Shown here: in pieces, positions 26,094 to 26,903 of the stretch | How positions within the stretch are numbered: the stretch's first letter is position 1 | Layout: every line of letters starts with the position of its first letter | Source: a virus | Lineage: Duplodnaviria; Heunggongvirae; Uroviricota; Caudoviricetes | Strand: one strand, 5' to 3' | Virus record (IMG/VR): IMGVR_UViG_2913147268_000006 | Span: 1 to 39,374 of that record | DNA: 39,374 nt | The notes under the pieces: generated by a model | Told to the model about the DNA's origin: nothing | The model's database searches: none | What the model saw: the letters and a program-made list of their open reading frames with translations, nothing else | Made by a program: the position numbers and the translations under genes

Positions 26094-26121
26094 TAAAAAC
26101 AAAAACCCGCCGAAGCGGGTT
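26094..26121 (-). terminator. Intrinsic terminator at 3' end of hok mRNA
   Basis: Minus-strand hairpin acccgcttcggcgggt followed by UUUUUGUUUUU. Confidence 0.55.
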
Positions 26122-26189
26122 AAGTGCGGGTGCGTTGAGGATGCCTGCCACATCAGAGGTGGCGAGGGATTTATCCCTCGCCGGGTCTC

Positions 26190-26345
26190 TTACTCCTCAG
26201 GTTCGTAAGCTGTGAAGACAGCGACCTCCGTCTGGCCGGTTCGGATTCGTACCTCGCAGAGGTCTTTCCTCGTTACCAGTGCCGTCACTATGACGGTTAA
26301 ACAGATGACGATCAGGGCGATTAACATCGCCTTTTGCTGCTTCAT
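26190..26345 (-). CDS. hokD: Hok family type I toxin (HokD/RelF-like)
   Basis: Hand translation gives MKQQKAMLIALIVICLTVIVTALVTRKDLCEVRIRTGQTEVAVFTAYEPEE (51 aa), which I recognise as HokD; below track threshold. Confidence 0.85.
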   Translation of the reverse strand: MKQQKAMLIALIVICLTVIVTALVTRKDLCEVRIRTGQTEVAVFTAYEPEE

Positions 26346-26530
26346 AGCCTGCTTCTCCTTGACCTTTCGGTCCGTAAGAGGCTAATCTCTATGTGTCGCA
26401 TAGATATGGCCTCAGATTAATGTTAAGCGTCTTGCAGGACGCGTAATGTTAACTGGGGCTTTTCTCTATCTGCCTTTTGGTGTTCATGCCTGAGACAGAT
26501 AGCCTCAAGCACCCGCAGTTATTCTACTTA
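26346..26530. promoter_or_regulatory. hok mRNA leader with expected antisense Sok region and short mok-like frame
   Basis: Leader shows the conserved GCUUGAGGCU...CUCA and GAUAGCCUCUUAC...CAAGGAGAAG elements of hok mRNAs; the only upstream ATG-initiated frame stops after about 12 codons. Confidence 0.4.
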
Positions 26531-26603
26531 ACTAAGATTTCCCCGCAAACCGTTTTTGTCCGGCACAGTAAATATCCAACTAAACCAATGGCGTTCGCTG
26601 TAT

Positions 26604-26822
26604 TTACCGCCAGTATTCAATGCACATGACCGCCATGAACACCCCTAAAAAAAGGGCATTTATATGTCCAAACATTAATATCAAAACATCAATTTTTTCC
26701 ATATACCTTGCTGTGAAGATGATGGGCATACATGATGCGAACAACCAGAACGCAACAAACAAAAACTGCAATGCGTTTTTCATTATTCCCCCTACAATCA
26801 ATGTGCAATAACATTTAAACAC
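26604..26822 (-). CDS. Small hydrophobic membrane protein
   Basis: 72 aa, two predicted TM segments; AT-rich. Confidence 0.4.
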   Translation of the reverse strand: MFKCYCTLIVGGIMKNALQFLFVAFWLFASCMPIIFTARYMEKIDVLILMFGHINALFLGVFMAVMCIEYWR

Positions 26823-26903
26823 ACCTCAATTTGGCCGGACATATAAATATCTAAACCAGAAAAAATCACTTACATAGCGTTACAAACTCTTTAGTCTAAA
26901 TAT

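Follow-up and report, generated by a model that had tools for sequence, protein, structure and literature searches.

The studied system closest to the locus described here is hokW/mokW/sokW, which is carried by the Stx2 phage 933W and the Sakai prophage Sp5. hokW-sokW is a working type I toxin-antitoxin system (PMC8621323). In Sp5, HokW increases and sokW decreases in response to mitomycin C, and deletion of the locus halves the release of Sp5 (PMC8621323). The -10 element of sokW was also mutated experimentally (PMC8621323). A second reference system is hok/sok/mok (parB) of plasmid R1, for which post-segregational killing was demonstrated. Mutagenesis of R1 showed that translation of mok has to reach the hok initiation region, or at least the hok Shine-Dalgarno sequence, and that stops past the hok start have no effect (PMC9841398).

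Chromosomal loci are represented by hokC/mokC (gef) of Escherichia and by hokD (relF) in the Qin prophage of K-12. The K-12 copy of hokC is IS-disrupted (PMC12214031). The K-12 hokD was described as the third gene of the relBEF operon (PMC12214031, PMC3598666), having lost its canonical components by rearrangement according to the literature (PMC12214031, PMC7232551, citing Pedersen and Gerdes 1999). Expression of HokD is toxic (bioRxiv 10.1101/2025.08.07.668861). Chromosomal hok loci tested in the past showed no post-segregational killing, as cited in the same preprint. Mok was left out of the analysis in this 2025 census of Hok because of the difficulty of calling it (bioRxiv 10.1101/2025.08.07.668861). 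Neither the system nor its mechanism nor its occurrence on prophages is new, and annotation of the gene is routine.

The hokD locus and its genomic setting

The window is the whole stretch of DNA that was analysed, 39,374 nt of a Caudoviricetes record in IMG/VR (IMGVR_UViG_2913147268_000006). Its hok gene, a hokD allele, was found in the ORF listing at 26345..26190 on the minus strand, with 51 aa plus stop and the product MKQQKAMLIALIVICLTVIVTALVTRKDLCEVRIRTGQTEVAVFTAYEPEE. Pfam HOK_GEF (PF01848) matched this protein with 82.9 bits (cut-off 22, E 1.2e-23), and PHROG 251, 'MokW-like host killing', matched with an E value of 2.8e-33. The RefSeq name hokD was obtained via an E. coli chromosome that was 100% identical to a 561-nt query spanning the hok locus. 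The accession of the window protein, WP_000813254.1, is also found in a K-12 derivative, whose HokD is identical. Pfam, PHROG and the accession confirmed what an earlier sequence-only reading of this DNA had proposed, namely a hokD-type type I toxin locus with a complete 51-aa Hok ORF. [quoted passage not shown] The hok Shine-Dalgarno sequence AAGGAG is located at 26360-26355 (-), 9 nt before the hok ATG. The codon for Tyr47 is UAC (26205-26207, (-)) and is followed by G, a conserved UACG context. In the K-12 hokD mRNA, the Tyr47 site is reported to undergo A-to-I editing to Cys at about 6% (PMC12214031).

Replication genes, ead/Ea22-like and DUF genes were present upstream of hok. Downstream were rem, DUF968, a Q-like antiterminator and lysis genes. 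These flanking genes support the nin-like position in a lambdoid prophage that the earlier reading had assigned. Directly upstream of the hok promoter, an AT-rich stretch (26530-26900, 36-40% GC) held no RefSeq annotation. It includes a very hydrophobic 72-aa ORF with a GTG start at 26604-26822 (-). This ORF was rejected as a hok partner gene, with neither a Pfam or PHROG match nor a RefSeq annotation.

At a distance from the cassette, three small RNAs on the plus strand were detected above the Rfam gathering score: DicF at 33921-33972 (71.5 bits), isrK at 34206-34282 (67.7 bits) and the C4 antisense RNA at 34307-34394 (81.9 bits). The isrK and C4 matches lie inside the start of a 284-aa Rha-family regulator ORF (34155-35009), and DicF is upstream of this ORF by about 230 nt. 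The Rha gene adjoins dicB in the matching RefSeq record. The group resembles an sRNA cluster for immunity and antirepression of the Qin/Gifsy type.

Homology to relBE was not detected anywhere in the whole window, which extends the reported absence of relBE beside hokD to the full stretch. The earlier statement that relBE adjoin hokD in K-12 Qin was correct as well, with the order relB-relE-hokD-rem. An alignment with K-12 hokD, put forward earlier as a check, gave an identical Hok protein and homology beginning at 26359, 14 nt upstream of the hok ATG. From this position through rem and the DUF968 gene, DNA identity was 93%, and the downstream neighbours are the same. Everything upstream of 26359 is replaced by relBE in K-12, which is without the hok promoter, the leader elements tac and ucb, Sok and mok. 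The window, in contrast, has the full cassette without relBE. Of 5,426 complete E. coli genomes, 2,940 contain at least 80% of the 561-nt locus. The complete, ancestral-type hokD is the common form in E. coli, and the relBE-hokD arrangement of K-12 is the rearranged exception. What the window holds is the well-known hok/sok cassette in a complete and unremarkable copy on a lambda-like prophage, and the finding matters little beyond correct annotation.

Near-identical hokD of the E. coli type was also present on tiny contigs assembled for unrelated genera, in Acinetobacter idrijaensis (275 bp) and Xanthomonas pisi (431 bp), as well as in a phage record assigned to Actinobacillus (vB_Apl-pPE4). 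These records probably reflect contamination or mis-assignment and not the true distribution of the gene.

Leader elements, predicted folds and a putative antisense RNA

The Rfam family sok (RF01794) matched the window at 26514..26343 (-) with 106.7 bits, a gathering score of 59 and an E value of 1.9e-23. The match covered model positions 1-157 of 157. The conserved hok leader elements noticed earlier are borne out by this full-length match. A putative hok mRNA promoter was read from the sequence at 26549..26521 (-). It would comprise a weak -35 hexamer TTTGCG (26549-26544), a 17-nt spacer and the -10 hexamer TAGAAT (26526-26521), placing the putative +1 of the hok mRNA at G 26514. The -10 region, TTAAGTAGAAT, is kept in 933W, Rac and E. 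coli W, and the PPompW prophage has TAGGAT. A putative Sok promoter was read at 26359..26388 (+), the same position as the sokW promoter region in 933W. Its hexamers would be TTGACC (-35, 26359-26364) and TAATCT (-10, 26383-26388), separated by an 18-nt spacer. Neither promoter was reported by a generic consensus promoter scan, with the hexamers under its threshold; the scan was silent on the hok promoter because of the weak -35. Both promoters were placed by homology instead. At the putative Sok promoter, 933W has TTGCCT and a 17-nt spacer, compared with TTGACC and 18 nt in the window. The second hairpin of the window leader is 1 nt longer, which contributes to the mok register described below and also changes the putative Sok promoter. 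Length variants of the leader may affect not only the mok frame but also transcription of Sok.

The element tac (GGGUGCUUGAGG, 26514-26503, (-)) represents the predicted 5' end of the hok mRNA and the start of the Rfam sok match. The element ucb (AGCCCCAG, 26460-26453, (-)) is the mok anti-Shine-Dalgarno according to the predicted folds, and dcb (GCCUC, 26382-26378, (-)) pairs with the mok Shine-Dalgarno in the predicted truncated fold. The element fbi (CCUCAACGCACCC, 26140-26128, (-)) is complementary to tac with one bulged C. An intrinsic terminator of the full-length hok mRNA was located at 26121..26104 (-), followed by a T run to 26094. It consists of the stem-loop AACCCGC-TTCG-GCGGGTT and the T run, in agreement with the 3' terminator of the earlier reading.

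The predicted fold of the full-length 418-nt RNA had a free energy of -168.7 kcal/mol and a z score of -7.3. In this minimum free energy (MFE) structure, tac was paired with fbi, and ucb with CUGAGGC, which holds the mok Shine-Dalgarno. In the predicted fold of the 3'-truncated RNA, the partner of tac was ucb, and dcb was bound to the mok Shine-Dalgarno. In the MFE structure, downstream coding sequence was paired with the hok AUG and with some of the hok Shine-Dalgarno. Structure prediction for tac, ucb and fbi, which the earlier reading had named as a check, yielded both R1-type fold states, and the predicted switch is the same as the published folding switch of R1 hok/sok (summarised in PMC9841398). 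The tac/fbi duplex comprised 12 pairs and one bulge with -21.1 kcal/mol. In 30 relatives, it was found at the same site, 48-55 nt past the hok stop, and the two strands covaried, for example from GGGUGC/GCACCC to GGGCGC/GCGCCC. The duplex table and the Rfam score formed the basis for covariation and were judged sufficient. For the window and for four relatives, the probability of being unpaired was computed for the Shine-Dalgarno sequences and AUG codons of mok and hok, in full-length as well as truncated RNAs. These values failed to distinguish active from inactive forms and did not set the window allele apart from the others.

A putative Sok antisense RNA of about 70 nt was assigned to 26393..26463 (+) by homology to sokW. 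The annotated sokW of 933W aligned to window positions 26395-26463 (+). The predicted fold of this strand (-32.2 kcal/mol, z -6.1) consists of a single-stranded 5' tail, a long terminator-like hairpin and the U-rich CUUUUCU. The 5' tail is complementary to the mok Shine-Dalgarno and start.

The mok frame, its register and its spread

The mok leader ORF (MRHIEISLLRTERSRRSRL, 26401..26342, (-)) comprises 19 codons. Its ATG (26401-26399) starts 8 nt after the Shine-Dalgarno sequence GAGG (26413-26410, (-)). In the alignment, this ATG is homologous to the annotated mokW/mok starts of 933W and of phage Rac, whose hok/mok is also colinear with the window locus. The segment with the mok Shine-Dalgarno, CTGAGGCCATATCTATG, is identical in the commonest -57 allele, and Shine-Dalgarno and ATG are at the same place in nearly all relatives. 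From ATG 26401, the frame passes through the hok Shine-Dalgarno up to the hok ATG, where the mok TGA (26344-26342) overlaps the hok ATG (26345-26343) to form ATGA. A mok of 67-70 codons that overlaps most of hok was absent in the window.

The sequence-only reading had described a single candidate mok ATG with a stop after about 12 codons. This does not hold, as ATG 26401 behind GAGG was overlooked. The 12-codon frame in question (MNTKRQIEKSPS plus TAA, 26487..26449, (-)) was rejected as mok or as an alternative leader ORF. It has no Shine-Dalgarno at a usable distance, lies inside the conserved leader hairpin after tac and is unchanged in loci with a normal mok. The mok of the window is indeed short, with 19 codons vs 67-70 in relatives, but the ORF concerned is not the one described, and the alternative raised in that reading, a different organisation at this locus, proved correct. 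An in-frame N-terminal extension of Hok as in mokW or mokC was also rejected, with no frame-0 start upstream in the window allele. The window allele cannot make an N-extended Hok.

The loci compared differ in their register, given as the position of the mok ATG relative to that of hok. At -57, which applies to mokW, mokC and most other hokD- and hokC-type loci, mok is in frame with hok and its ATG would give an N-extended Hok of 69-70 aa (MokW, MokC). At -58, mok is out of frame with 68-69 codons, as in Rac, P1-like plasmids and, by the coordinates of PMC9841398, R1. The R1 Mok is a peptide unrelated to Hok, in contrast to the N-extended Hok of the -57 register. The E. coli W locus has mok at -55, out of frame with 67 codons. 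The window allele has mok at -56, with 19 codons and the stop on the hok ATG. Every hok compared begins with ATGA, and therefore any -56 frame must end there. In the alignment, the mok-hairpin segment of the window is 2 nt shorter than usual, in common with E. coli W, and the second hairpin is 1 nt longer than usual, in common with Rac and PPompW. Of the four combinations of both length variants, only that of the window gives the short mok frame, and the other three give a long mok. The short-mok register seems to be undocumented so far.

The allele is widespread in E. coli. An exact 83-nt segment was present at 100% identity and full length in about 750-780 of 1,830 matching E. coli records, including ST131, a count estimated from the identity band and an evenly spaced listing. 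Among the matches listed for IMG/VR, 120 hokD-type loci were assigned to -57 (99 loci), -58 (seven) and -56 (14). The 14 copies at -56 encode five Hok variants, and the flanks of several have little or no similarity to the window. Their leader is represented by one variant, vs 23 in the -57 class, among these listed matches. Since all 14 copies share one identical leader, the -56 allele looks young. It could have spread by neutral hitch-hiking and not because its function is maintained.

The same arrangement, with mok at -56, 19 codons and ATGA, was found outside hokD. In hokC of E. ruysiae and E. whittamii, a mok-loop deletion is the cause. Erwinia (two copies) and Kalamiella (one copy) have the -56 ATGA mok through a deletion between the hok Shine-Dalgarno and the ATG. 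The E. ruysiae, E. whittamii and Erwinia/Kalamiella copies differ by substitutions and have an intact hok. Their sequences point to independent origins of the -56 mok in Erwinia/Kalamiella and in the hokC of the two Escherichia species.

Probable coupling of hok to mok and comparison with described systems

The window probably carries a functional hok cassette in which hok is coupled to mok. The window mok has an intact start and Shine-Dalgarno, and its frame ends on the start codon of hok. Coupling is probably intact because R1 mok needs translating only as far as the hok start; the R1 evidence covers stops after the hok start, unlike the window stop, which overlaps it. Overlapping stop and start codons are a classic arrangement for termination-reinitiation.

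A likely course of events can be drawn from R1 and hokW-sokW, on which the proposed transcription starts, 3' processing, effect of Sok and short-mok coupling are modelled. The weak promoter would give rise to a stable hok mRNA of about 415 nt, in which the 5' tac pairs with the 3' fbi and ucb then sequesters the mok Shine-Dalgarno. Slow 3' trimming would remove fbi, and tac would switch to ucb. The mok initiation region would then be open to ribosomes or to Sok, with Sok normally winning and the mRNA decaying. If Sok falls, ribosomes would initiate at the mok AUG 26401 and read 19 codons through the hok Shine-Dalgarno. They would terminate at the UGA that overlaps the hok AUG, the local structure would open, and ribosomes would reach the hok start by termination-reinitiation or facilitated initiation. 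The product would be Hok, a membrane toxin of 51 aa.

The opposite outcome, a silenced or attenuated cassette, was also considered. Ribosomes stopping atop the hok start would then block hok initiation or fail to promote it. The 16-nt mok-hairpin and 40-nt second-hairpin segments would together have put mok in the +1 register, and the locus would persist only as neutral cargo of mosaic prophages. This would fit an allele that resembles a recombinant of the length variants of E. coli W (-55) and Rac/PPompW (-58/-57), that is the only one of four segment combinations with a short mok, and that shows a single sequence variant without diversity in 14 copies among the matches listed. Other natural damage is known at such loci. 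In E. coli WEC, the mok ATG is changed to ATA, on plasmid p2_115106 hok is shortened to 32 codons, and seven truncated hok ORFs were present in the 120 hokD-type loci among the IMG/VR matches listed. However, the -56 class showed no faster decay, with hok intact in 13 of 14 copies vs 93 of 99 at -57 among the same listed matches. The remaining regulatory elements of the window cassette are all intact, and a search at the window locus for the inactivation routes known from K-12 revealed no IS insertion and no leader loss. The -56 arrangement is also kept in the diverged copies of Erwinia/Kalamiella and of two Escherichia species, and translation past the hok start is dispensable in R1 (PMC9841398). 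Silencing of the cassette is considered unlikely on balance. The suggestion of the sequence-only reading that coupling may be broken, as in inactivated chromosomal hok loci, found no support, as neither the true mok start nor its Shine-Dalgarno is damaged; broken coupling is disfavoured because of the R1 data, the abundance and spread of the allele and the independent origins of -56.

Translation of hok might instead be independent of mok. The AAGGAG 9 nt before the hok ATG would then suffice, the 19-codon frame would be irrelevant, and Sok would act mainly via RNase III-mediated decay and not by blocking mok. The hok Shine-Dalgarno is strong, its predicted unpaired probability of 0.42-0.46 is not below that of some relatives, and K-12 hokD is expressed from the relBEF transcript without any mok (PMC3598666). 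In R1, however, loss of the mok start abolishes Hok toxicity despite the Shine-Dalgarno of hok itself (PMC9841398). The placement of mok Shine-Dalgarno and ATG, conserved in nearly all relatives, and the pairing of the hok AUG and part of its Shine-Dalgarno in the MFE structure also speak against independence, which appears very improbable.

The short mok, whose 19 codons end in AUGA, may well represent a third functional register next to the Mok-Hok fusion (-57, in frame) and the overlapping mok (-58, out of frame). Coupling would then work by termination-reinitiation and without an N-extended Hok, and the evidence tips slightly towards this proposal. If it is true, the recurrence of this register in three hok lineages would mean that ribosome traffic to the hok start is all that selection acts on, and the loci would be natural alleles with which modes of coupling could be compared. 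The use of all three registers by natural hok leaders is consistent with the conclusion from R1 that only translation as far as the hok start counts. The short-mok register is a small variation, and the behaviour expected of it follows from the published R1 data.

Among the described systems, the hokC/mokC toxin of Escherichia shares 80-82% identity with the window Hok. Its mok is normally at -57, in frame, and gives a MokC of 69 aa. The hokC of E. ruysiae and E. whittamii has the 19-codon form of the window instead. hokC is a locus of the core chromosome and its leader is without the extended Sok hairpin of the window, where hokD is prophage cargo. R1 hok/sok/mok has the same architecture as the window, where the putative cis-antisense Sok would likewise lie over the mok start. 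It differs in being a plasmid system, in a Hok that is only distantly similar and in a mok of 70 codons that begins 58 nt before hok (positions 116 and 174; PMC9841398) and is out of frame. The 933W cassette is colinear with that of the window element by element, with about 91% DNA identity over the whole window cassette. The mokW of 933W is at -57, in frame, and encodes an N-extended Hok of 70 aa, compared with -56 and 19 codons in the window. The C-terminal residues of HokW differ from those of the window Hok, and hokW is located near the end of the 933W genome, whereas hok of the window is in the nin-like region. By analogy with hokW-sokW, the window cassette could promote lysis and the release of phage once the prophage is induced, and it could also make the prophage more stable. 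Both cassettes are prophage-borne and encode a toxin of 51 aa, and 933W has an annotated antisense RNA at the place that matches the putative Sok of the window.
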